IMG/VR virus record: IMGVR_UViG_3300010167_000008 | Coordinates: 1 to 32,394 of that record | Strand: one strand, 5' to 3' | DNA: 32,394 nucleotides | Origin: a virus | In this document: positions 3,057 to 32,394 of the stretch, one piece after another | Layout: each line of letters starts with the position of its first letter | Position numbering within the stretch: position 1 is the first letter of the stretch | Notes under the pieces: model-generated | Told to the model about the DNA's origin: nothing | The model's database searches: none | The model's input: the letters and a program-made list of their open reading frames with translations, nothing else | Made by a program: the position numbers and the translations under genes

Positions 3057-4742
3057 TCATGGTTTTTTGAAGATTAAAACGTTCTGATGCACTCTGACGA
3101 CTTTGCTCGTCTTCATGCAGTTGTTGGCTCGCATTCCCGCGTTGCCAAATTTATTAACGAGGATAATCTCGTTGTAAAACTTGCAGCCCGCGTCCGTGAA
3201 CGCTCGGATAGTGTCGGGGACGAACCCATAGTAATTCCCGTCCTTGTCGCGAAATTCGCTAACTACAAAGGCAGCAAACCCGCCACGTTTGAGCACACCG
3301 CAAGACTTTTCTATTATCTGTCGGTACACCTGCATAAACGCGGGATATTTCATCGTGGATAGGTCTTCTGGAATGTCGCTGTACACTTCGAGGTCTCCAT
3401 ACGGAGGGCAACTCATAACCATATCAAACTCCGCTCCTTCGAGCATATCAAGGATTTGATTGCTGTCGCCGATAATCCAATTCGGCATCTTGATTTCAGG
3501 AGCCGCAACGGGGGTGCGCATGGTGGGTCGAATGCCAACTATCCACAGTAGGTCAGCGGGTTGTAGAAAGTCAATACACTTCGCCTCGTAGTATGGGTCG
3601 AGTTGAATTCCATTGTAAGTAGTAACCATTGCAGCGGAATGATAATCGCTACCATCGACGTCGACGATAGTAACCATGTCCCTCCAATTTGGCGGCGCGT
3701 ACTTATCAAGTCGCACCTCAGGGTCAGCACCAACGCGCACCGCAACAACGGGGATGTCCCGCATAGTGTCGCGCAACCCCCAAAGTACACCCGCAAGGGT
3801 CATGCCGCTTCCGCATGGCATTACAATCCGATTGACTTCGGGTGGAATGTTCTGAACTTGTTGGCGGTTCTGAGTAACAGCCTCTTCGCACTCCATACCA
3901 AAGGGGACGTCAAGATAATTCTCGGCGGCGGCAAATTCTCGGCTCCGTGCAATAATGACGGAGTTATAACCTTCCTTGTGCTGAATTATCCTCGCGCCGC
4001 TGTCTTGCGCCGCAATTAGTTCGTCGGATAACTGACCTTCGGGCGCGTGTACCACAACGGGAATGCCAAAGGCTTTTCCAATTTTGGCGAGGATATTGAT
4101 TTGCGGGCTGCTTCTGCTCCCCGCCGTTGTTATCCCCTGACCGACCGTGCGGTTCTTGATAACGAATTGAGAAGCCGTGCGAGCCTTCCCGCCAACCGCG
4201 CCACCGATTTCGAACAAGTCGTCCCGCTTGAAATAGACGTCGTCTATCAGTTGCACGGGGGTTAATTCGTTCGGGTTGCTGATGATTTGCGGTTTGGCGT
4301 TGGCAGGTGATTTGAATATTTCGCGGGCTTGCTCGTAATTGCTCTCGACCTGCTCCTTGCGGAGTTCAATGCCCGTGTAATCATAACCGAGTTTGTTGGC
4401 AACAATTCCTCGAACGGAGCCTCCTGCAAATGGATCAAGAATAGTCCCTCCCGTTGGCGCAAACCACTTGTATAACACTTCGCAGAGTGTCGCGCTGAAT
4501 ATACTTATATTAGATTTGAATTGTGTGCCAAATCTTGCATTATTCCTATTAGCGCCGCACCGTTCATTTCTTCCTAATTCTGACTTGATTCCCTTGCGTA
4601 ACCATTTGCCCTCGTTTTTATTATAATCGCCCGAGCGGGTGTCAATTATGGAAAATGGGTTCAGTAGGTACTTCCCCGCGCAAGTGGTTGTCGCGTCGAC
4701 CTTGTCGCCGAATAAGTTGTAATTTTTATTTTGTTCTGTCAT
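3057..4742 (-). CDS. Fusion protein (561 aa): permuted N6/N4 DNA amino-methyltransferase with an inserted ACC-deaminase/D-cysteine-desulfhydrase-like PLP enzyme domain (aa ~158-407, nt ~3522..4271)
   Basis: MTase motif I ILDPFAGGSVRGIVANKLGYDYTGIEL (aa 101-127) and motif IV FDMVMSCPPYGDLEVYSD (aa 439-456). Insert carries TPVQ, FKRDDL, GGAVGGKAR (K186), ITTAGSRSSPQ, PCGSGMTLAGVLWGL and GIQLDPYYEAKC. ATGA overlap with the helicase gene. Confidence 0.8.
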   Translation of the reverse strand: MTEQNKNYNLFGDKVDATTTCAGKYLLNPFSIIDTRSGDYNKNEGKWLRKGIKSELGRNERCGANRNNARFGTQFKSNISIFSATLCEVLYKWFAPTGGTILDPFAGGSVRGIVANKLGYDYTGIELRKEQVESNYEQAREIFKSPANAKPQIISNPNELTPVQLIDDVYFKRDDLFEIGGAVGGKARTASQFVIKNRTVGQGITTAGSRSSPQINILAKIGKAFGIPVVVHAPEGQLSDELIAAQDSGARIIQHKEGYNSVIIARSREFAAAENYLDVPFGMECEEAVTQNRQQVQNIPPEVNRIVMPCGSGMTLAGVLWGLRDTMRDIPVVAVRVGADPEVRLDKYAPPNWRDMVTIVDVDGSDYHSAAMVTTYNGIQLDPYYEAKCIDFLQPADLLWIVGIRPTMRTPVAAPEIKMPNWIIGDSNQILDMLEGAEFDMVMSCPPYGDLEVYSDIPEDLSTMKYPAFMQVYRQIIEKSCGVLKRGGFAAFVVSEFRDKDGNYYGFVPDTIRAFTDAGCKFYNEIILVNKFGNAGMRANNCMKTSKVVRVHQNVLIFKKP

Positions 4743-6178
4743 ACTTTTTTTGATTTAGTTGGTAGTGAAAAAGGGTCGAGTTCGCCGAAGCAAAAGTCAA
4801 GGTCGGGCATCGCCCAATCGAGACCGACATAGCAATAACAGTTTTCGAAGCCCTTGCGGTTTACGTTCTTTTTGACAACGCCCTGCCTTGATAACTCTTG
4901 GTCGATGAGTTTACGGGTTGCAATCGGCAACACCCCAAAGGTGCTCCGCAACTTGTCGTTCACGTCTTTAACCGCAAGTATTGCCAACGGGTTATCCTTG
5001 TCAATCATAAAGATTTTCATATACTCCGAATAACTCGTTTGCACGGTTTTATCCGTTCGGTTGAGTTTGGGCTTGTAACGGAAACTTTTAATAAAATCGA
5101 CAATAATCTTGTTGCGTTCGGGTTGGAATACGTCGAGGAAGTTGGTGTTTCTGTCCCACGCAATTTCAAGCGTTTTCTCGGGACTTTCATATTCAATCAT
5201 ACGTCTAATTGTCCCGCTGTCAATATCGTTTATTACAATGGGATTATTACTGAAATACACCACACTTGCGCACACTTGCAACGTGCCGCCGTTGGTACTC
5301 AATTCACGATAAGGAACGCTCGTGCCACTTGTAATCCTCTTGATGAGGTTGTTGTCTTTTTGGCGTTCGTTGCTTTCGTCAATCAGTATCGTCGAGGCGC
5401 GGTTCATCTTGCGTTTTTCGACGATAAAGTCGTAACCGCTGACCCGTGTGCTGAATGCCTCCTCAGTAATCTCGCAGATAAGTCCGTCAAAGATTTGGCA
5501 CATGAGAGCAACGAATGTCGATTTGCCGCTCCCGCCTTTTCCTTTGACAGATACAAAGTATTGTCCGCCCCGTGTACGTTGGAGCGATTTGCTGAACACC
5601 GAAAGGAGTTCGTAGTATTCGTCCTCATCCTTGACGCCGAAAACATTGTAACAAAGTTTCCGAAAGTTGCTCGGCGGCTCTTTGTCTTCCCAATCGAGAT
5701 TATCCACGAGTACGCTGTCAATGCAGCACACCTCGCGGCATCGCGGGGATAATGTTTCAGGTTTCAGATATCGAACGATGTACGGGTGCGGCTTGAGCCA
5801 CAACCCGAGTTCGATGTTGTCGTCGGCGTGGTTACGGAAGTGCAAATTGCGCTCGTAACCATTTGCCGCCGCCCGCTGTTCGCGGTCAATTATACGCTTG
5901 AAAATCTGGTCGATAAAGTCTTTGCAGTCTATAAGTTCCTGTCGGTCAGTGAGTATCTCTTGGATGTCGGGATACTCATGCTCTTCGGGTGTCATATTCG
6001 CCAACACCCGCCGCGCAATAAGGTAACAGACGGGGAATTGTGTACTCGATTCCTTGACCGAAATCTTATACATTACTCCCTCGTCGTTGAACCAATATTC
6101 GCCGCCATAATAGACAATGTCGTCAATCCAATACTTTCCGCGTGATGTGATATAGGTGGAAAAATCTTTGCTATCCAT
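4739..6178 (-). CDS. SF3 helicase, D5/P4-type NTPase (479 aa)
   Basis: Walker A VKGKGGSGKSTF, Walker B-like ILIDES, then LIKRITSGTSVPYRELSTNGGTLQVCASVVYFSNNP, typical of P4/D5 C-terminal helicase domains; no primase motifs recognised. Confidence 0.7.
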   Translation of the reverse strand: MDSKDFSTYITSRGKYWIDDIVYYGGEYWFNDEGVMYKISVKESSTQFPVCYLIARRVLANMTPEEHEYPDIQEILTDRQELIDCKDFIDQIFKRIIDREQRAAANGYERNLHFRNHADDNIELGLWLKPHPYIVRYLKPETLSPRCREVCCIDSVLVDNLDWEDKEPPSNFRKLCYNVFGVKDEDEYYELLSVFSKSLQRTRGGQYFVSVKGKGGSGKSTFVALMCQIFDGLICEITEEAFSTRVSGYDFIVEKRKMNRASTILIDESNERQKDNNLIKRITSGTSVPYRELSTNGGTLQVCASVVYFSNNPIVINDIDSGTIRRMIEYESPEKTLEIAWDRNTNFLDVFQPERNKIIVDFIKSFRYKPKLNRTDKTVQTSYSEYMKIFMIDKDNPLAILAVKDVNDKLRSTFGVLPIATRKLIDQELSRQGVVKKNVNRKGFENCYCYVGLDWAMPDLDFCFGELDPFSLPTKSKKV

Positions 6179-6726: not shown

Positions 6727-7410
6727 TCAGACGATTATCGTTGTGCCGCGAACGGCAACGCGAACCCGATTGAAGCCCGCACGAGCGAACTTCGCGAGTA
6801 TCATTCCCGCCCGTGCGCCGCTTTCTGATTTATGCAGTGTTATAATTTTGGTGGTCTTGTTGTGCGCAATTCTGCTCACATAGTCGACACACTTGTCGTC
6901 TGAACAATGGTTGCGCAACCGCTCTTTTTTATCCTCGTCGAGGTCTTCAAAAATGAAGTTGTTGTAACTGCATTCAATCATAATCGCGTCGAAATTGTAG
7001 TGGCTGAGTTGGTCGATGACCTCGTCGTCAATGTGATAAAAGTCGGTTGCGTATAATATGGTCTTCTTGCATTTGGTTTGTATTATAAAGCCGTTGCAAG
7101 TTGAGGCGTTGTCGCGCAAGATTTTCGCATGATAATCGTGATGCACGGGGAAGGAGTACACGTCGAATTCCGTTACCTGCTTTCCGAAGAAAATCTCGTA
7201 TTGCTTTGAAACGTTAAAAACGAAGTGGTCGGAGTGTCGGTGGCTGACAATGAAGCCGCAATATTCTTTCGCCTCCTTTGTGTTGGCGATGACGGAGGAG
7301 TAGTTGAGCCACGCCTCAACGACGAGGCAGTTGCCCGCCTCGTCGATAAGAGCATAACTGTTTCCACTGCTACCTGTCCCGAGTACTTTAATTGTCGCCA
7401 TTGATGTCAA
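6727..7410 (-). CDS. Metallo-beta-lactamase-fold hydrolase (227 aa), probable nuclease of the recombination module
   Basis: IKVLGTGSSGNS near the N-terminus and an HxHxDH motif (VSHRHSDH). Confidence 0.7.
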   Translation of the reverse strand: MTSMATIKVLGTGSSGNSYALIDEAGNCLVVEAWLNYSSVIANTKEAKEYCGFIVSHRHSDHFVFNVSKQYEIFFGKQVTEFDVYSFPVHHDYHAKILRDNASTCNGFIIQTKCKKTILYATDFYHIDDEVIDQLSHYNFDAIMIECSYNNFIFEDLDEDKKERLRNHCSDDKCVDYVSRIAHNKTTKIITLHKSESGARAGMILAKFARAGFNRVRVAVRGTTIIV

Positions 7411-7651
7411 ATTTTAAAAGAAAACGTTTCTTTAAGTTTGAATTACAAACAGTTGTAGATTCTAAAATAGACTTTTCAAATGCTTTTATTGCTTTTTCTA
7501 TTATTTCTTCTTCGGAGAGTTCAACTGCTTTAATTGCATCTTTTTTAAGAATCGTTTCGATTGTGATTTTTTCATTGCTTAATATGTTTCCATTATAAGA
7601 AACAAATACTATCGCATTATCGATAAATTTACTTGCGTTTTTACTTTGCAT
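7388..7651 (-). CDS. Hypothetical protein (87 aa)
   Basis: ORF whose start shares one base with the RecT-like stop; AT-rich. Confidence 0.45.
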   Translation of the reverse strand: MQSKNASKFIDNAIVFVSYNGNILSNEKITIETILKKDAIKAVELSEEEIIEKAIKAFEKSILESTTVCNSNLKKRFLLKFDINGDN

Positions 7652-8577
7652 TAATCGAATGGGTGTTCTTCGGGTTCGGTTGTTACGGGTTCGGGTTCGG
7701 ATTTGAGCCCTGCAATAATTGCCTCTTTTTTTGGCGGCGGTGGTGTGTCCGCTTGCGCGGGTGGGTGTTGCGTTTCTTTCTTCGGTTCGGATACTTTGGT
7801 TAATACCTTGTTATCTTTGACCTCAACGTATTCAACGTCAATCGGTTTGCCTTCGTTTTCTTGCGAATAACCTGCAAACTCGTTCGGGAATGCTCGCTCA
7901 AACGCTTGCGCGAGTGCCACCTTGCAAATCATGAACGCGGGGCGCGTGAGCCATATCTCGTTCACTTCCTTGTCGGTGTACTTTCTAAGTTTGTCGTCCC
8001 AGTTGGTATTCTTTGCATTGTTGAAGCGGTTTTCCTCGAAAGATACTTCGCTGATTTCGTGGTGTTCCCAATCCTTGCGATATACCTCCGCCCATCCTGC
8101 AATGAGGATTTCCTTTGGCAGCAACCACTCGCCCGCACGACGAACGAGTTCGCCTTTGTCGGTTACAACGATGATTCCGTGTTTGCAGCCATTGTAGTTC
8201 GGGCTCATGGCAGCGCGGCGCATGGCAACCTCGTAGGATGGCATTAACACCACTTTTCCGCCTTTCTTTGTAATGGATACATCGCGGCTTGCGGGGTTGA
8301 GACCGAGAATTTGCGCGTCGATAAATACCTGCAATAATTCGCCATAATCCCAACAATTTTCGAAGTCTTTCTTCGCTTGGTGTGGCAACTCTGCCTCGCA
8401 GGATTTCCCCATATTTTTCAGAAAATCCTCCTTTGATGTAATGTCTTTCAAGCCAAAGAAGGCTCGCATGGTTATTCCGCATCTCTCCTTACAAAGTGCG
8501 GCGGCTTCCTGAGCCGTTGCAAGTGCAATCGCCTCTTGCATGGTTACTTTTTTGATTGCTTTGGTTTCGTCACTCAT
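7651..8577 (-). CDS. RecT/Bet-like single-strand annealing protein (308 aa)
   Basis: LGLNPASRDVSITKKGGKVVLMPSYEVAMRRA and WLTRPAFMICKVALAQAFERAFPNEF resemble the RecT-family core; Pro/Glu-rich acidic C-terminal tail ending EEHPFD. Confidence 0.6.
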   Translation of the reverse strand: MSDETKAIKKVTMQEAIALATAQEAAALCKERCGITMRAFFGLKDITSKEDFLKNMGKSCEAELPHQAKKDFENCWDYGELLQVFIDAQILGLNPASRDVSITKKGGKVVLMPSYEVAMRRAAMSPNYNGCKHGIIVVTDKGELVRRAGEWLLPKEILIAGWAEVYRKDWEHHEISEVSFEENRFNNAKNTNWDDKLRKYTDKEVNEIWLTRPAFMICKVALAQAFERAFPNEFAGYSQENEGKPIDVEYVEVKDNKVLTKVSEPKKETQHPPAQADTPPPPKKEAIIAGLKSEPEPVTTEPEEHPFD

Positions 8578-8890: not shown

Positions 8891-9305
8891 TCCTTTGGGA
8901 CGGGAGGATAAAATAGTCATCGGGATTAAATTTTGGTTTGTACTTCTTTTCGTAAAAATCTTTAACTTTTTGGCACTTTTCAGCGTCTTGGAAGTTGTTG
9001 GTGTACTTCTTTGCCTTTCTGAATAGATCGTGGAACTCATGCAAGTTTTCGGACATTTCTTGCAGCCCTTTCCGTATGGCAGCCCATCGGGATAATTCGG
9101 CGAGCATCCGCTCATTTTCCATCTGAGCAATCTCGGGCGTGATATACTTTGTCTTCCGTTGTTGCGCCGCGTGTGCCGTCTGCAATTCACACCTGCCATT
9201 TGCACGGCATTCCCCGCAAGGTGTGAAGCAAGGGTGTTGCGAGTAGTTTGGGTTGCGGGGAAACACTACTCGTTCCATAGGATAATTCGCCGCTTGATTA
9301 GTCAT
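8880..9305 (-). CDS. Hypothetical protein with an N-terminal Cys cluster (141 aa)
   Basis: CFTPCGECRANGRC; ATGA overlap with the stop of the Rad50-like gene. Confidence 0.5.
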   Translation of the reverse strand: MTNQAANYPMERVVFPRNPNYSQHPCFTPCGECRANGRCELQTAHAAQQRKTKYITPEIAQMENERMLAELSRWAAIRKGLQEMSENLHEFHDLFRKAKKYTNNFQDAEKCQKVKDFYEKKYKPKFNPDDYFILPSQRNDL

Positions 9306-11233
9306 GACTCAATAATTAACGGGGAATTTTCTTTAACCCGTAACTCCACGAGGCACGGCAACAACGGCATATTCTTTTTCTCGCAGTTTTCGGCATTGTC
9401 GAAAAAGATAGGAAGGGCAACGGCGAAATGGTCTTGAAATCGTTGGCAGAGCATTGATAGTTTCGCATTTGCGCGGCTTGTATTTGGATTTTCAAACCCG
9501 TCAATCTTCATAATGGCAACCTCTTCGAAGCCCTCTTGCGTTATAAGTTTACGGAACAAAGTGATTTCAATTCCATCGGGAAGAAACTTGGAAATAGCGT
9601 CCTGACAATCAGTGCGATAATCGTTCTCAGCCTGCTCAATGGCAATCATTTGTCGCTCGTTCTCAATTAACGCCTTGCGCACCATTTCCGAACGGGCATC
9701 ATTTTTCGCAATCTGCTCGTCCGCCGTTGCATACCCATACGCAATCTCATCAGCCTTTTTGTCTTCGGATTGTAACTGCTCGATTTCGAGTTTGGCTGCT
9801 TGGATTTTTTCGCTGTTATTCACACCCTTGAAATCCGTGATGATTTTGGCTTGTAACTCCGCAATCCTCTTCGCCTTGTCGTCTTCCCACTTGCAAAGGT
9901 TGGCAGCGTTTTCGTCGTTGATAACCTGATTGTCGTGCGAAAACTGTTCACGGGCTTTCGCGTTGGTTTCGTTAATGGCAGCGTTACGGGCGGCGATTTC
10001 CTCGTTCTCCTTCTTTATTGCTTCGTTCTGCAATTCGATTGACTCGTTAAAAGTCTTGTCAAGGTTGCGCAATTCCGAACCTTGCTTTGTAACCGCGTCA
10101 ATCTCGGCAACAATGGCGGCTTTCCGCTCTTCAAGATTTTGCACCGATTTGTCAATCTCTTCCAATTTGGCAGCAATTTTCAGAGCGGCGTCAGCCTTGC
10201 TCGTATTGCGTTGAATTTCGGCGCAATCGGCATTCGTGCAGTACGGGCAAACCATACAGATGAAGTCCTCTTTATCGGCGGCGGCGGAGGTTACACTTGC
10301 AACCGTTTCTCGCTGTTTATTCCAATATGCAATCTTTTCATCGATGGCTTCGCGTTCTGCTACCTTCCCGCGATAAGTTACCAACAACCGCTCAATTTCG
10401 GGGTTCTTCTTGAGTTCAAGGTACATTTTAGGAGCCTCAATTTCGGCGGGCGTGAAAACGAGTTGCGGTTTGGGTGTAAACTTTTCGCCGTGAATATCTT
10501 GTATCTTTTCGCGGAGGCTTTGATTTTCCGCTAAAACATCGCTTGACACGGCGGCACGTTCTTCTTCATACATTTGCTCGATTTCTTTTTGAAGTGCGCT
10601 GATTCGGGCTGTATTGCGGTCGGTTTTTGGTTTTTCAGCGAAAGTCTCCCGCAAACTCTTTGATTTTATGTTCAACTCCTCCATTTCAGCCTTCTGCTCG
10701 TTGATTTCCTTGCGCAACACCGCTTTATTCGGAAGTTCGCGAATATAGTCAATCAGGTTCACGTTCACAATGGAGGAAATTATCTTGAGTTTATCCTTTT
10801 GCGCAAGGCTGATGAAATATTGCGGGTTTGTGAAAAGAGCAAGGTCGTAACCCTTGCAAGTATCCGCGATAGCGGCATTGTAGTCCGCCAACTTTACGGG
10901 CGTTTCGTTAAGAAAATATTCGCAGTTCAATTCGGTTTTTAACTTTTCGTCGTCCGTGCCGCGCTCGCGGGAATATAGTGGCTTTGCAGCCTTGCGGAAA
11001 ATCATGTCGTCCGTGTGGAAGGCAACTTCGGCAAATCGGTTGCCGTCCCTGTCTTCGTGGTTGTACACGTTGGACGATGTGAATTCTTTCATGTCGATAG
11101 AGCGTTGGTTCATACACCATAAAAAAGCATCTAAAATGGTGGTTTTTCCGCTCCCGTTTTCGCCGCTCACGGTGGCGGGGAATGCCACCGTGAGGTCGTG
11201 GTGTTTCTTGAATCTTTTAATTTCGATTTTCAT
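9302..11233 (-). CDS. Rad50/SbcC-like SMC-type ATPase with a zinc hook (643 aa)
   Basis: Walker A GENGSGKTT, long coiled-coil middle, mid-protein CPYC hook (aa 329-332, nt ~10238..10249), C-terminal Walker B-like LPIFFDNAE. Confidence 0.7.
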   Translation of the reverse strand: MKIEIKRFKKHHDLTVAFPATVSGENGSGKTTILDAFLWCMNQRSIDMKEFTSSNVYNHEDRDGNRFAEVAFHTDDMIFRKAAKPLYSRERGTDDEKLKTELNCEYFLNETPVKLADYNAAIADTCKGYDLALFTNPQYFISLAQKDKLKIISSIVNVNLIDYIRELPNKAVLRKEINEQKAEMEELNIKSKSLRETFAEKPKTDRNTARISALQKEIEQMYEEERAAVSSDVLAENQSLREKIQDIHGEKFTPKPQLVFTPAEIEAPKMYLELKKNPEIERLLVTYRGKVAEREAIDEKIAYWNKQRETVASVTSAAADKEDFICMVCPYCTNADCAEIQRNTSKADAALKIAAKLEEIDKSVQNLEERKAAIVAEIDAVTKQGSELRNLDKTFNESIELQNEAIKKENEEIAARNAAINETNAKAREQFSHDNQVINDENAANLCKWEDDKAKRIAELQAKIITDFKGVNNSEKIQAAKLEIEQLQSEDKKADEIAYGYATADEQIAKNDARSEMVRKALIENERQMIAIEQAENDYRTDCQDAISKFLPDGIEITLFRKLITQEGFEEVAIMKIDGFENPNTSRANAKLSMLCQRFQDHFAVALPIFFDNAENCEKKNMPLLPCLVELRVKENSPLIIES

Positions 11234-11754: not shown

Positions 11755-12339
11755 TTAAACGTTATAATCTGAAATTGCAAGCGGCATAATAACCGCGATT
11801 GAATTTTGCCAACGGGGTTCGTCGGATGTGCAAACAATCGGAACTTTATCCCCTTTGAAGTTGTAGATGATTTTCTTGTGCGCAAAGGCGTCAATCAACG
11901 AGCGATAAATCTCTGAGTTGATTGCAACCCGTGTAACGCCATTTTCGCAACCCTCTTGAGGTTCGAGTTCTTTGGCATTTTTTATAAATTCGTCAATGTC
12001 GGGAAATTTCAGTTCGTCGCCCGAATAAAAGGCAAAGAATGCTCCTTTGATTCCTTTTGCGTTGGTACATTGAATTCCGTCCTCTTGGACGATAATAGAA
12101 TGACATCCGAGCATTGCTGCATAACTTTCGCCATGCAAGATTTTCCCGTCAAGGAGTGTAATTTGCTCCTCGCTGAGGTTGCAGATGTCAGTCAGGTAGT
12201 TTTTAATCGCGCAATGTGCGTCAGTTGCATACGCAAACCCACCCTTGAAATGAATGTAATTCATTGCGGGGCGAATTTCGTCTTTGAGACACGCCTTGTG
12301 CATTTTCACAGACGAGTAGAAGTTGATTTTTTTTGCCAT
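11755..12339 (-). CDS. Sliding-clamp (DnaN)-like domain protein (194 aa)
   Basis: EIRPAMNYIHFKGGFAYATDAHCAI resembles the DnaN domain-I RP...TD pattern; KFPDIDEFI resembles the clamp FPDY..VIP linker; C-terminal IAVIMPLAI. Weak, by eye. Confidence 0.4.
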   Translation of the reverse strand: MAKKINFYSSVKMHKACLKDEIRPAMNYIHFKGGFAYATDAHCAIKNYLTDICNLSEEQITLLDGKILHGESYAAMLGCHSIIVQEDGIQCTNAKGIKGAFFAFYSGDELKFPDIDEFIKNAKELEPQEGCENGVTRVAINSEIYRSLIDAFAHKKIIYNFKGDKVPIVCTSDEPRWQNSIAVIMPLAISDYNV

Positions 12340-12366: not shown

Positions 12367-13242
12367 TTATAAGGAGTTTACATAATCCTTCAATTCTTGG
12401 ATATAGGTAACGCGCTCGCGTTCTTCTGTGTCTTTTAGTTCAAAAAACAAGTTTTCGTCAAACACGCTGTTAATTGCTTCCTCACACATGGATTGTATTT
12501 TTTCTGGGCGCACGGCGTCGAGTTCCACTTGTCCCAACCCATCCCAATTCGCTGTCCTGCTATCCGTAACCTTTGCAGGCGCGGGCGGCAACTTCCACTC
12601 GATAACTTGGTGCTCCATGAGCGAAATCCGTCTCACGTCCACGTCCACTCCGAGTTTCATGAGATTATCCTTGATTGCGCGTGGTATGTCCTCCCCACTT
12701 GGGTCATAGTCGCCAAAGTACAATATCACGGGTGTTTTTCCATGTCTCACGGCACGTTTGAAACGGCGGGATGCTTCATATAGAAACGTCAAAGAAGGAT
12801 AACCCTTGCAAGCCCCCAACCCGACGTCGTGTTTACTGCACACCTTGTCAAATACTCCCTCGAGTGCCTTTTTTTCAATAAATACCTCAGGATAAATCGG
12901 TTGATTTTCCCAACGGTTTTTTCTGTAAACCGTCATCCACAATCCGACCTGACGTTGTCCTTCGTCAATCTTGTCAGATAACACGGTTTCGTCGGCGTTG
13001 GTGTCGTTTGCCATTTCTCTATCCCTGTCGCAGAATGTATCAAAATCAACAAGCCCGTCCCACCTTGCAACGCCCATCGCCGCAACGACGCGGTCGTAGT
13101 GTTGTTGTGTGTTGGTCATGCCGATAGATACGAGTTGGTAGTGGAGTGCTCTGATTGTGAGCACTCCTTTTTCGTAGCGTTTGATAATCTCTAGGCTGTT
13201 CTCAATTATCCATTGTCTTGTAAATTGGTCTCTTGCTGCCAT
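12367..13242 (-). CDS. Spo11/Topoisomerase VI-A-like protein (5Y-CAP + Toprim), 291 aa
   Basis: R31-A-L-H-Y35 matches the R-x3-Y catalytic Tyr motif; Toprim Glu in VFIEKKALEGVF; KGYPS; DxD in ILYFGDYDPSGEDI; C-terminal GQVELDAV. Confidence 0.65.
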   Translation of the reverse strand: MAARDQFTRQWIIENSLEIIKRYEKGVLTIRALHYQLVSIGMTNTQQHYDRVVAAMGVARWDGLVDFDTFCDRDREMANDTNADETVLSDKIDEGQRQVGLWMTVYRKNRWENQPIYPEVFIEKKALEGVFDKVCSKHDVGLGACKGYPSLTFLYEASRRFKRAVRHGKTPVILYFGDYDPSGEDIPRAIKDNLMKLGVDVDVRRISLMEHQVIEWKLPPAPAKVTDSRTANWDGLGQVELDAVRPEKIQSMCEEAINSVFDENLFFELKDTEERERVTYIQELKDYVNSL

Positions 13243-13251
13243 AACTACCTC

Positions 13252-13686
13252 CTACCATTTAACCTCGAAGTCAGACTTCGACGTTTGATTTACAATTTCC
13301 ATTCCCAAATCTATCGCCTGCTTTGGCAACACGATATTCTCGGCGCGATACGCTTTCACTATTACTCTCTGAATGGCTTGAAGAGCATACCATTCTTCGC
13401 TCGTGTATGTTCCCCGCTTGATAGTCGGATAATAGTAGGAGCGGGCGTTTTTTGTGCAAAATCCTTTAAATGAACACTTGTAAGTACGGGCGGGCATTTC
13501 GGTCGATACTATCATCTCCTCGCCGTCAGGTGCTTGGAGGTCGAGTACAACCATTTTTTCGGGGATTGCTTCCCGCCTCACGAGTTCACTTTTTTTCCAA
13601 TCATTCGTGAAAATGATTGTGTTGGTAGCGTTTCCGCAACGTACTTCGTAGCGGGCATTTTTGTCGTTCAATTTGTTTTTTATCAT
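13252..13686 (-). CDS. Hypothetical protein (144 aa), first gene of the early operon
   Basis: ORF on the coding strand after the ~900-bp non-coding region. Confidence 0.55.
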   Translation of the reverse strand: MIKNKLNDKNARYEVRCGNATNTIIFTNDWKKSELVRREAIPEKMVVLDLQAPDGEEMIVSTEMPARTYKCSFKGFCTKNARSYYYPTIKRGTYTSEEWYALQAIQRVIVKAYRAENIVLPKQAIDLGMEIVNQTSKSDFEVKW

Positions 13687-13705
13687 AATGTACTGAAATT
13701 TTTTG

Positions 13706-13725
13706 GTTAATAATGTTGTTAATAA
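13706..13725 (-). promoter_or_regulatory. Two tandem TTATTAAC motifs (13706..13713 and 13718..13725) upstream of the ATG at 13686
   Basis: GTTAATAA twice on plus; the proximal copy is 19 nt from the ATG. Confidence 0.35.
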
Positions 13726-13740
13726 ATATACTATATAAGT

Positions 13741-13783
13741 GGCGGGCGGCGGTTGCGAGCCGCCATTGTGTTAAACGCCCGCC
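13741..13783 (-). other. GC-rich stem-loop with alternative pairings in the early-operon leader
   Basis: ggcgggcg (13741..13748) pairs with cgcccgcc (13776..13783); ggcgg (13748..13752) can instead pair with ccgcc (13760..13764). Confidence 0.45.
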
Positions 13784-14298
13784 GTTAATGTTTTATGTTG
13801 TCATCTATAAGTACTCGCGCCTTTTTTCCATCCGCTTTCGTTTTTTCGCAAAGTCTCAGATATTGTCGTTGAGGTTGGTAGTTTGAGAGTTCTTTGCTTC
13901 GAGGTTTATACTCCCCTCGCTCTGGAGGTTTTTAGTCGGTGGCTCCCGCCGTTCCGCTTTGGTGTTTTTTTCGCAGGTGTTCCCGTCCTGCATCAAAGAG
14001 CGCGTTTTTTTTGTGTTACTTTCGTTTAGTTTCACACCGCAAAAATAAAACTATTTCAATACAAAAATTTTTATCTCGCATTTTTTTTGCATTTTTTTTT
14101 GAAAATAATGTTAAGTTGTTGAAAATAAGCCGATAAAAATGTTTACTTAATAATCAAAGTTAATTAGGAACGTAAAGTGCTGATTATCGCAAAGATAAAC
14201 GATCTATCTCGCAGAGGTATAAACACACGAGAAAAAAAGAAGTGCCGTTAAATCGCACAAAATCGGCATTGTCGGGCAAATTGCTTTTCTTATAATAT

Positions 14299-14525
14299 CC
14301 ATATAATACACATTTAACAATAAAAATAACTATATAATATAATAATAATCAACAAGTTATGTTTTAGAATTATATAATTATATTGATCTTATATATACCT
14401 CTGATTTTTTGGTGTTTTTTATCGATTTTTCTGTTGTTCTCTTTATGCAGGTGTTTAACAATTTAACAAATCGCGTCAAACGCTGTACGGGTGCGGTTTC
14501 TCGCGGTTAAATACGTTGTTAAATG
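14299..14525. repeat. AT-rich intergenic element, copy B (227 bp), homologous to 777..1003; inverted repeat CATTTAACAA (14311..14320) / TTGTTAAATG (14516..14525)
   Basis: Same shared blocks as copy A: TTCTCTTTATGCA at 14437..14449, TTAACAAATCGC at 14463..14474, ACGTTGTTAAATG at 14513..14525. Confidence 0.8.
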
Positions 14526-14535
14526 TTAAATGAAC

Positions 14536-14558
14536 AAAAAAAAGCGGCACGGAGCCGC
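14536..14558 (-). terminator. Rho-independent terminator ending the late/accessory transcription unit
   Basis: Stem gcggc (14544..14548) / gccgc (14554..14558) with a 5-nt loop, followed in minus sense by eight U (A run 14536..14543); lies ~30 nt after the stop at 14591. Confidence 0.65.
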
Positions 14559-14590
14559 CATTTTCGAAAAAGTAAGTTTTTCGCAATTCA

Positions 14591-31351: not shown

Positions 31352-32394
31352 TCAAACAACAAGTTCGCGCATGACAACCATTATGAAAACGTAACGGGCG
31401 GCATCTATGATATTGCGAGCACCCTCGTACACTCCTTCTTTTACTTTATAGTCCTTGAATTCACTTTGAGCATTTTCCCCGCACACATAAATCGTCCACA
31501 ATGCCATTTCCGCAACGCTACTATCAACGTCCATCTTGACTATTGGAACGGTGTACAAATCAAAGTCGGGGTTCTGATGCATATTTAACACACGTGTTCC
31601 ACCTGCCATTGCATTTTCGTACACCATGCAGCGAGCGTCCCGTATGATATTAACTCGCTCCGCTATGACACTATCGGCAACAAATGCCTGATAAAGTTCC
31701 TCCGCAATATAAATTGCTTTGTTGACATAATCGAATTTAACGCTGCAAAGGGCGTTCGGCGCGGTTGTGTCCCCGAAGTCAATACCGAGATACTTGACAA
31801 AGGCATGGCGGTCGAACGTGGCGCGGTCTATGTGGTGTACCTTGTTGAACACCCGCCCGCCGAGTGTTGCGTATTCTCCGAGTATTTCGTTGGCATAACG
31901 TTTGTACTCCGCCGAACCGATTTCGGCATCTTTTCCCTCCTCTTCGATTTTCTTAAACCGTTGCTTTTGCTCGGTAGATAGAAAACTGTTATGCAGGTAG
32001 GAAGTGATTAATGTGTTGGCGGGTGTTTGCAATTTGCGACACCAATGGTCGCTATCTGTCGGGTTCATGTCGCACACTATTTGTCCCTCAACGCCAACCT
32101 CGAGCATTTCATACAGTTCTTTATCAATGCCGTCCAACTCGTTAATATATAACCACTTCATTCGTGTACCTTTGGCGTCTTGCGGTCGGTTGAACGACCT
32201 GAACCGAAATGTCATACGCTTGTAACGTGCGATGTATTCTCCTTCCGCCTGCTTATATTGCGGCGCAATGCCAACAATGCCTGCAAAGTCTTTTATTACT
32301 TTCCCCAAATTTGGAAACGTGTCGCTCGTGATTAACACATCGCCACCGCTGCCATGACTTGCGATTGCAAGGAAACGCCACATGTGCGCAAGTG
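31352..32394 (-). CDS. terL: Terminase large subunit, main part (reading frame continues past the window edge; true 5' end at 124..223 after circular closure; ~380 aa in total)
   Basis: ATPase region continues from the Walker A encoded at the junction; C-terminal nuclease-like region (CDMNPTDSDHW, GIDFGDTT); sits upstream of the portal gene. Confidence 0.85.
   Translation of the reverse strand, partial: LAHMWRFLAIASHGSGGDVLITSDTFPNLGKVIKDFAGIVGIAPQYKQAEGEYIARYKRMTFRFRSFNRPQDAKGTRMKWLYINELDGIDKELYEMLEVGVEGQIVCDMNPTDSDHWCRKLQTPANTLITSYLHNSFLSTEQKQRFKKIEEEGKDAEIGSAEYKRYANEILGEYATLGGRVFNKVHHIDRATFDRHAFVKYLGIDFGDTTAPNALCSVKFDYVNKAIYIAEELYQAFVADSVIAERVNIIRDARCMVYENAMAGGTRVLNMHQNPDFDLYTVPIVKMDVDSSVAEMALWTIYVCGENAQSEFKDYKVKEGVYEGARNIIDAARYVFIMVVMRELVV
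32272..32394. repeat. Terminal overlap, copy 2 (identical to 1..123)
   Basis: Direct comparison of the window ends. Confidence 0.95.

Follow-up and report, generated by a model that had tools for sequence, protein, structure and literature searches.

A short viral relative of the type IIB topoisomerase A subunits was defined by Takahashi et al. (2019) as Mini-A, a group of Topo VI-A homologues of approximately 300 residues (PMC7671362). According to that work, Mini-A proteins combine the second half of a truncated 5Y-CAP domain with a Toprim domain and lack the N-terminal segment used for B-subunit binding; they keep an arginine before the catalytic tyrosine, a glutamate, a DxDxxG motif and an xWELDAL T2BI box, and are encoded in viruses or proviruses with no Bergerat-fold partner (PMC7671362). 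Reviews up to December 2024 describe the role of Mini-A as unexplored and report no activity. Here, we analyse one such gene, at positions 12367..13242 on the minus strand of a 32,394-nucleotide viral stretch (IMG/VR record IMGVR_UViG_3300010167_000008, positions 1 to 32,394; this whole stretch is called the window below). Its open reading frame (ORF) starts with ATG and encodes 291 amino acids (aa), comprising a truncated 5Y-CAP/winged-helix domain and a Toprim domain. A preliminary description made from the DNA alone had placed the ORF correctly, leaving out its strand, and had likened the product to Topo VI-A, Spo11 and the stand-alone Mini-A proteins. Judged by its sequence, the 291-aa protein falls in Mini-A, a subfamily of the A subunits of type IIB topoisomerases, and the explanation that we tentatively favour for the locus as a whole is a partner-free, tyrosine-linked break-maker that would supply ends for recombination and replication. 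The family itself is already known, having been published in 2019 and being present in PHROGs and in GenBank phage annotations; what is new here is that no partner is conserved across the compared loci, that the gene moves as a single-gene cassette, and that a PP-loop-like protein can take its place.

Membership of Mini-A specifically follows from direct homology to gp49 of Pseudomonas phage NP1 (36% identity over 255 aa in BLASTP, E 8e-43), the phage that serves as a Mini-A example in Figure 2 of the defining paper (PMC7671362), and is upheld by PHROG 6247, "DNA topoisomerase", which the protein matches end to end (E 1.8e-61). The family is large, far beyond what a chance ORF would show: 1793 homologues were retrieved from a word-indexed set of 5.8 billion proteins, and an exhaustive HMMER search matched at least 6084 representatives of 50%-identity clusters at E<=1e-3, 2965 of them still at the stricter E<=1e-10. 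Among GenBank phages, 84 records carry homologues detectable by tblastn with the 291-aa protein. Five of these are 67-69% identical (Alistipes AS73P1, Elizabethkingia TCUEAP2, two Bacteroides phages and Parabacteroides PDS1). The remainder are below 60%, with 33-37% among the matches listed, and include the Pseudomonas NP1/PaMx25/JG054 group, the chi-like Salmonella phages, and phages of Brevundimonas, Microbacterium, Stenotrophomonas, Xylella and others; many of the GenBank homologues are already annotated as "DNA topoisomerase".

Residue conservation was assessed in an alignment of 94 sequences, consisting of the 291-aa protein and 93 diverse relatives at 29-60% identity. Each motif that the preliminary description had named was found at the residue numbers claimed. 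The predicted catalytic tyrosine and its conserved arginine lie in R31-A-L-H-Y35 (residues 31-35; 13138..13152, on the minus strand like all motifs given here). The first Toprim strand, EVFIEKKAL (residues 119-127; 12862..12888), ends in E123, the predicted metal-binding or general-base glutamate, followed by K124. Next come K146-G-Y-P-S150 (residues 146-150; 12793..12807), the counterpart of "KGVPA" in Top6A, and ILYFGDYDPSGEDI (residues 173-186; 12685..12726), the Toprim DxDxxG metal-binding site with D178, D180 and G183. The LPPAPAKVTDSR block (12556..12591), with K224, D227 and R229, is shared with "LPTHPLKEQD" of Top6A and is aligned with it in both the profile and the hhalign comparisons described below. 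Finally, V239-E-L-D-A-V244 (12511..12528), which reads QVELDAV with the preceding residue, is the Mini-A form of the T2BI box. Invariant in all 94 sequences are R31, Y35, Y49, R60, D72, E123, K124, G147, S150, D178, D180, G183, E240 and A243, so that the earlier claim that all catalytic residues are kept (R31, Y35, E123, D178 and D180) holds for the protein and extends to its relatives. Nearly as constant are K224 and D227 (93 of 94 each), D242 (92), R229 (88) and Y148 (86). Variation is seen directly before the catalytic tyrosine, where the 291-aa protein has H34 (Y in 68 sequences, F in 18 and H in 8), and in the T2BI box, whose W position, column 239, holds W in 45, V in 39 and Y in 9 sequences and whose L position, column 244, holds L in 59, I in 19 and V in 11. 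That R31, Y35, E123, D178, D180 and G183 remain invariant at 29-60% identity argues for selection on catalysis.

Beyond the family, evidence of homology to Topo VI-A comes from a profile search and from hhalign and, more weakly, from Foldseek. A single-sequence search of NCBIfam gave nothing meaningful for the 291-aa protein. In Pfam, 9 of the 94 family members weakly touch TP6A_N (PF04406; best E 0.024) and 7 weakly touch TOP6A-Spo11_Toprim (PF21180; best E 0.0013), and the 291-aa protein does not reach the curated threshold of either. When the family profile was run against the Protein Data Bank (PDB) with hmmsearch, the best match was Methanocaldococcus jannaschii Topo VI-A (1D3Y, E 0.0032), which aligns over the DxD region ("VFTDGDPYG") and the LPxxPxKxxD block, with a further, sub-threshold segment setting TLRqlYY on TLREAYY. 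For a comparison of alignments, a Top6A reference of 67 full-length sequences from archaeal and bacterial genomes was aligned to the Mini-A alignment by hhalign; querying a database with 81 aa of Top6A had yielded C-terminal fragments only, and the full-length Top6A proteins were taken from genome contigs. The two families align with 92.7% probability (E 4e-7) over 233 columns, placing residues 4-288 of the query on positions 74-357 of the 369 in Top6A and pairing R31/Y35 with R99/Y103 (numbered as in M. jannaschii-type Top6A), KGYPS with KGVPA, and DYDPSG with DGDPYG. Near E123, a low-confidence stretch, the register is off by approximately 13 template residues, and E123 falls on the glutamate of NLETDA, not on AIETSG, which we take to hold the Toprim glutamate of Top6A.

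An AlphaFold2 model built from the 94-sequence alignment has a mean predicted local distance difference test (pLDDT) score of 93.5 and a predicted template modelling score of 0.85. We read this model as an N-terminal helical domain followed by a Toprim-like C-terminal domain of alternating beta strands and alpha helices, in which E123 is flanked by a beta strand (116-122) and a helix (125-137). Searched against the PDB with Foldseek, the model has a single match at E<=1e-3, to the A subunit of Methanosarcina mazei Topo VI (9o8p_A, E 8.6e-4); ranked second is another chain of that subunit, 9o7o_A. Against BFVD, the single significant match is the truncated half-protein of PDS1, with low-ranking primase and helicase matches at E >0.01. 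The kinship to Topo VI-A and Spo11 put forward in the preliminary description is thus borne out: the best profile match and the top two Foldseek matches in the PDB are Topo VI-A, and hhalign aligns both the tyrosine and the DxD site, which sets the protein apart from the unrelated Toprim families without an aligned tyrosine that had been named as the alternative.

The same description had pointed to the Toprim module of the Wadjet protein JetD, and this resemblance is probably real but weak. The PADLOC model of JetD (JetD3) matches a 29-residue segment of the 291-aa protein at its DxD site (E 0.012), and 29 of the 94 family members touch Pfam DUF2399 (PF09664; best E 2.2e-6), which we take to be a JetD-type C-terminal domain; JetD_C (PF09983) is touched by 6 and Toprim_2 by 2. 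Models of OLD, Gabija and PARIS are absent from the PADLOC, Pfam, PDB and Foldseek matches of Mini-A.

No gene for a B subunit was detected in this phage, in agreement with the earlier claim: Pfam scans of the closed 32.3-kb genome, covering every listed ORF of at least 200 aa and six shorter ones, together with precomputed Pfam matches for the 28 called genes of locus L086, which spans 20.9 kb around the gene, showed no HATPase_c, GHKL or Topo VI-B domain, although a very divergent B-like protein could escape such scans. The window was then compared with Mini-A loci from 80 viral contigs and 5 GenBank phages; in this set of 86, which includes the window, Mini-A could be placed in 83. Around these 83 genes, almost no gene clusters are shared beyond a group of PDS1-like phages, and no conserved adjacent gene was found outside that group. 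Apart from Mini-A itself, only two genes of the window cluster with any other locus. Jackhmmer searches seeded with the window's 643-aa ATPase (9302..11233), RecT-family protein (7651..8577), primase/helicase-like protein (4739..6178) and the two ORFs flanking Mini-A, g144 (144 aa, 13252..13686) and g194 (194 aa, 11755..12339), all on the minus strand, found none of them in any other compared locus, and the window's metallo-beta-lactamase (MBL)-fold hydrolase (6727..7410, minus strand) was found in two other loci only. A RecN-like ATPase of the PDS1 type was found in 21 loci, nearly all of them in the PDS1-like group.

The SMC/Rad50-like ATPase was considered as the missing "Mini-B" and rejected as a general partner: the window's own ATPase has no jackhmmer match in the other loci, that of the PDS1 type is narrowly distributed, and AAA_23 appears in only 2 of 120 neighbour clusters. 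The g194 product was considered as a cryptic GHKL or B-like subunit; it has only 4 homologues in the 5.8-billion-protein set, and its AlphaFold2 model has a pLDDT of 34. In a Pfam census of the 120 distinct neighbour clusters, no family exceeded three matches, and the GHKL domain is absent among the 25 most frequent families listed, which include DNA methylases, primase/helicase domains, AAA_24, PD-(D/E)XK nucleases, SNF2, ParB_N, HNH, AAA_23, ThyX and Mu Gam. Individual phages illustrate the diversity. In NP1, Mini-A is accompanied by a ligase gene and by genes for a Sak4-like annealing protein, a Cas4-type exonuclease and a helicase; nearby, the chi-like phage BP12C has ThyX and PAPS-reductase-like genes; Brevundimonas phage Delta has ThyX; and Stenotrophomonas phage Bhz60 has a methyltransferase directly upstream. 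HNH and RuvC-like genes lie near Mini-A in BirdInFrench, and RuvC-like resolvases or exonucleases do so in PDS1, TCUEAP2 and BirdInFrench. Mini-A therefore sits in replication, recombination, nucleotide and modification modules without a fixed partner. As a separate observation, Mini-A lies near ThyX or other nucleotide-metabolism genes, or near modification genes (QueC/QueE-type, PAPS-reductase-like, methyltransferase), in several unrelated lineages, a tentative association.

Sister phages of the window were reached through the homologues of g194, on contigs L172/L173 (a 32,980-bp contig) and L174/L175. They keep g144 (75% aa identity to its counterpart in L172) and g194 (63-80%), and their string of ATPase, RecT, MBL hydrolase and primase genes is 67-88% identical at the nucleotide level. 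Comparison of L172/L173 with the window by blastn shows the DNA similarity breaking off at 13252 and returning at 12367, so that both breakpoints coincide with the limits of the Mini-A ORF; the segment between (12368..13251) behaves as an exchangeable single-gene cassette with g144 as its left and g194 as its right flank. In the sister phages, the slot (L172:785-1801; L174:3099-4100) is filled by an unrelated PP-loop-like protein of 333-336 aa with an SxGxDS motif ("VGFSCGLDS" or "VGYSSGFDS") and a C-terminal CxxCxxC. This replacement scores E 0.013 against Pfam ATP_bind_3 and approximately 1e-3 against PAPS-reductase-like and QueC-like PHROGs, and its two versions share just 34% identity. Mini-A copies are 60-72% identical between the window and phages with which it has hardly any other detectable genes in common.

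Broken copies also occur. In the cultured phage PDS1 (MN929097, 8986-9872), Mini-A is split just past the Toprim glutamate into halves annotated as "DNA topoisomerase" and "DNA primase"; two loci from different metagenomes, L054 and L055, carry the same frameshift as each other, and a third, L059, is frameshifted as well. These frameshifts could be sequencing errors or real pseudogenes and, if real, would make Mini-A dispensable. Together, the cassette swap, the identity across otherwise dissimilar phages and the frameshifted copies indicate that Mini-A is an autonomous, horizontally exchanged gene that is dispensable to this replication module. We also observed Mini-A homologues with 66-71% identity on two bacterial contigs (L176 and L177, of 107 kb and 412 kb), where they lie a few small genes into apparent integrated elements, beside ordinary bacterial metabolic genes; after one of the two comes a gene for a DnaG-type primase fusion of 1319 aa. 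These contigs fit temperate or integrated carriers of the cassette.

How might such a protein work? On the reading that we favour, Mini-A would act as a homodimer without a dedicated ATPase subunit, with two hybrid active sites, each formed by Tyr35 and Arg31 of one protomer and by E123, D178, D180 and Mg2+ of the other. Arg31 would position Tyr35, which would attack the DNA backbone beside the partner's Mg2+ site, leaving a staggered double-strand break with Mini-A held covalently at the 5' ends via phosphotyrosine. Because there is no B subunit or ATP gate, no directed strand passage is expected, and the outcome would be either reversible cleavage or a protein-capped break of the Spo11 kind. 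The DNA ends may then feed the SbcC/Rad50-like ATPase, RecT protein, MBL-fold hydrolase and primase-helicase encoded in the same gene string. Mini-A itself would work as a self-contained module of one exchangeable gene and would not be essential to the core of replication. A link to recombination is suggested by the RecT and SbcC-like genes here, by the annealing protein, ligase and exonuclease beside Mini-A in NP1, and by the RuvC-like resolvases or exonucleases near it in PDS1, TCUEAP2 and BirdInFrench. Cleavage without a partner appears plausible by analogy, because mouse SPO11 alone is reported to make covalent double-strand breaks in vitro (PMC11922746), the MksG Toprim nuclease cleaves DNA without ATP (PMC10123090), and one Topo VIII linearises plasmids.

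An exact 123-bp terminal overlap (1-123 = 32272-32394) shows that the window is a complete genome assembled as a closed circle, with 32,271 unique bp. The identical Mini-A protein is present on at least 7 contigs, two of which, from ENA and JGI samples, are approximately 32.4 kb long. The likely genes are all on the minus strand, with a structural set that includes terminase, portal, prohead protease and a tape-measure-like protein. Judged by its nearest relatives, the host group is probably Bacteroidota; a megablast search of phage genomes with a 4-kb region gave no match.

Upstream of the operon, between two co-directional gene blocks, lies a non-coding region of 904 bp (13687..14590, minus strand; 65% A+T), which begins after a 164-aa gene with a terminator-like hairpin and T-run (14559-14543, minus strand) found by a terminator scan. 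Promoter matches of the sigma-70-like and TAnnTTTG-like kinds are numerous in it, and A/T-rich palindromes lie around 14290-14400; searches of it for tRNA and Rfam families found none, and a search for iterons gave only weak two-copy repeats. The region could hold the operon promoter and possibly a replication origin. The first ORF after it is g144, which has no Pfam or PHROG match, and Mini-A starts 9 nucleotides past the stop of g144. The hairpin, the gap, g144 and this short spacing fit the position of Mini-A as second gene of the operon, as the preliminary description had it, while the "early" in that description was a presumption about timing.

Downstream of Mini-A, the co-directional order is g194, two small ORFs, the ATPase, RecT, the MBL hydrolase, the primase/helicase and a methylase fusion. 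The g194 product matches phrog_3007 ("RusA-like") weakly (E 3e-6), and a sliding-clamp PHROG more weakly still. The 643-aa ATPase is SMC/Rad50/SbcC-like (Pfam AAA_23, E 8e-12, and SMC_N; PHROG 77 "SbcC-like", E 6e-11), with a Walker A motif at residue 24 and a CPYC near mid-protein, at residue 329, resembling the zinc hook of Rad50/SbcC. A canonical ABC signature motif was looked for in it and not found, its Walker B-like "IFFDN" is atypical, and no Mre11/SbcD-type nuclease is evident beside it. The single-strand annealing protein belongs to the RecT family (Pfam RecT, E 2.4e-21; PHROG 2760, E 5e-30). The MBL-fold hydrolase, a possible nuclease, matches PHROG 392 (E 1e-25) and, below the curated cut-off, Pfam Lactamase_B_2 (E 1.6e-5), and the primase/helicase-like protein matches PHROG 1156 "DNA primase" (E 7.5e-16) and Pfam DUF5906. 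The last gene (3057-4742, minus strand) encodes a 561-aa fusion of a DNA methylase (N6_N4_Mtase) with a pyridoxal phosphate-type enzyme domain (PALP), matching PHROGs 12517 and 498. This fusion is unusual and may indicate DNA modification beyond simple methylation.

Other roles must be weighed against the supply of DNA ends. Mini-A might be an accessory weapon or counter-defence factor, cutting host, prophage, plasmid or rival-phage DNA, such as unmodified DNA, or blocking a defence; it would then be one of several interchangeable early accessory cassettes and play no part in the replication of the phage itself. The clean one-gene swap with a PP-loop-like gene between conserved flanks would suit this, as would the position of the gene close behind the likely start of the operon and the 60-72% identity across otherwise dissimilar phages, which suggests horizontal spread. 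So would the neighbours, with DNA methyltransferases as the most frequent families, one of them directly upstream in Bhz60, and modification-type genes of the QueC/QueE and PAPS-reductase kinds near Mini-A in NP1 and chi-like phages, and the likeness of the Toprim domain to that of the JetD defence nuclease. However, a tyrosine-linked enzyme is stoichiometric unless it religates and would make a poor degradative nuclease, and the invariant R-x3-Y is the very feature that has no counterpart in MksG/JetD. PADLOC, a collection of defence-system models and not an anti-defence library, gave a marginal JetD match only; genuine replication genes also undergo cassette swapping; and the methyltransferase association has no background control. 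We regard a weapon as the more serious of the competing roles, if an improbable one. Somewhat less likely again is a true topoisomerase, in which a Mini-A dimer would relax or decatenate replicating DNA either without ATP or with the help of a non-GHKL ATPase, here possibly the nearby SMC/Rad50-like protein, or of a host factor. The protein does belong to a type IIB A-subunit family and has an intact cleavage-religation active site; an SMC-like ATPase is encoded 1.1 kb downstream and a RecN-like one near Mini-A in PDS1-type phages, and ABC or SMC ATPases are repeatedly found paired with Toprim proteins, as Wadjet, OLD, Gabija and PARIS show. Yet the part of the 5Y-CAP domain that binds the B subunit is absent (PMC7671362), in line with the hhalign match beginning at position 74 of Top6A, and no ATPase partner is conserved, given the restricted occurrence of both the window and the PDS1-type ATPases and of AAA_23. 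No annotated SMC-like gene lies near Mini-A in NP1, BP12C, Delta or Bhz60, the Mini-A gene moves alone, and, following the two-gate model, opening of a DNA gate without a second gate would yield a break and not strand passage. A non-catalytic DNA-binding or structural protein, finally, would agree with the annotation "DNA binding protein" of some SEA-PHAGES homologues in Microbacterium and Curtobacterium phages and with a winged-helix-like N-terminal domain that would bind DNA, but the absolute conservation of the tyrosine, the arginine and three metal-binding acidic residues across 94 sequences is hard to explain in this way, making such a role highly improbable.

The generation of ends comes first in our ordering, as a tentative choice, ahead of the weapon and then the topoisomerase, and several points count against it. 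The 291-aa sequence alone has no Pfam match even at E<=10 and finds nothing in the PDB, and the Foldseek template modelling score to Top6A is low (0.33), such that the inter-domain arrangement may differ. Dimerisation, cleavage and covalent attachment are drawn by analogy, and literature searches for a functional study of any Mini-A found none; this, together with the reviews cited above, agrees with the earlier statement that the function of such stand-alone phage proteins is unknown. The PP-loop-like swap shows that Mini-A is dispensable for the replication module, and the exchange of a single gene argues against a core, indispensable role in the replication operon; the frameshifted copies in PDS1 and three metagenomic loci point the same way. 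A protein-linked break would need an end-cleaning activity, which only some Mini-A phages visibly encode, and the SbcC-like ATPase is not general among Mini-A loci. Moreover, phage DNA-metabolism modules of any kind commonly include recombination genes, which makes their co-location with Mini-A weak evidence.

Mini-A is a very large viral family that retains the full set of Topo VI/Spo11 cleavage residues. If it cuts alone, it would offer a simple bacterial-virus model for the formation and control of Spo11-type breaks, and a new type of enzyme for the biology of phage replication, recombination or host takeover. Its activity would then also be relevant to the question of whether stand-alone viral A subunits were the starting point of type IIB topoisomerases. 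A broader proposal is that Mini-A is the self-sufficient Spo11-like break-maker of thousands of phage lineages, a portable one-gene module that either seeds recombination-dependent replication, in this phage with the RecT and SbcC/Rad50-like proteins as annealing and end-processing arm, or breaks unmodified host or rival DNA. This would make Mini-A a minimal natural Topo VI/Spo11 cleavage engine, possibly near the ancestral type IIB state; we put the proposal forward as speculative and on balance doubtful. The copy in the window by itself adds little beyond one more family member, and its locus alone does not make the role of Mini-A easier to study.

Comparison with the known systems places the protein as follows. 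OLD-family proteins, Gabija GajA, PARIS AriB and DnaG-type primases have the same Toprim fold as Mini-A, with an acidic metal site, but have no CAP-domain tyrosine, and no ABC ATPase of the OLD kind is fused to Mini-A or encoded next to it. JetD and MksG of the Wadjet/MksBEFG systems, which are dimeric, ATP-independent DNA cutters, have a Toprim domain that is probably related. They differ in that MksG has no catalytic tyrosine in the domain equivalent to 5Y-CAP (PMC10123090), whereas Y35 is invariant in Mini-A, which groups the 291-aa protein mechanistically with Topo VI-A and Spo11. They differ also in context, as Mini-A is encoded in a phage and not in a host defence locus, and there is no JetA/B/C operon: no JetA/B-like genes were found in the phage, whose lone SMC-like gene is the Rad50/SbcC-like ATPase three genes from Mini-A. 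Topo VIII is likewise restricted to mobile elements and has a truncated 5Y-CAP and a conserved box at the end of its Toprim domain, but it is plasmid-borne, with fused or split B and A moieties, a GHKL ATPase with a transducer, and an RVELNAM box, none of which the 291-aa protein has. With Topo VI-A and Spo11 it shares the domain order, the catalytic arginine and tyrosine, KG(Y/V)P, DxD and the LPxxPxKxxD block, while being approximately 70-100 residues shorter, devoid of the B-subunit-binding N-terminal segment and unaccompanied by Top6B, Top6BL or any other GHKL partner. The published Mini-A proteins are the closest of all, being alike in length, domains, catalytic residues, viral location and the absence of a Bergerat-fold partner. 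The departures of the 291-aa protein from their consensus, H34 and V239, are minor and fall inside the variation of the family, and what distinguishes this Mini-A is its setting, on a small 32.3-kb phage and in a slot that is filled by another gene in the sister phages.

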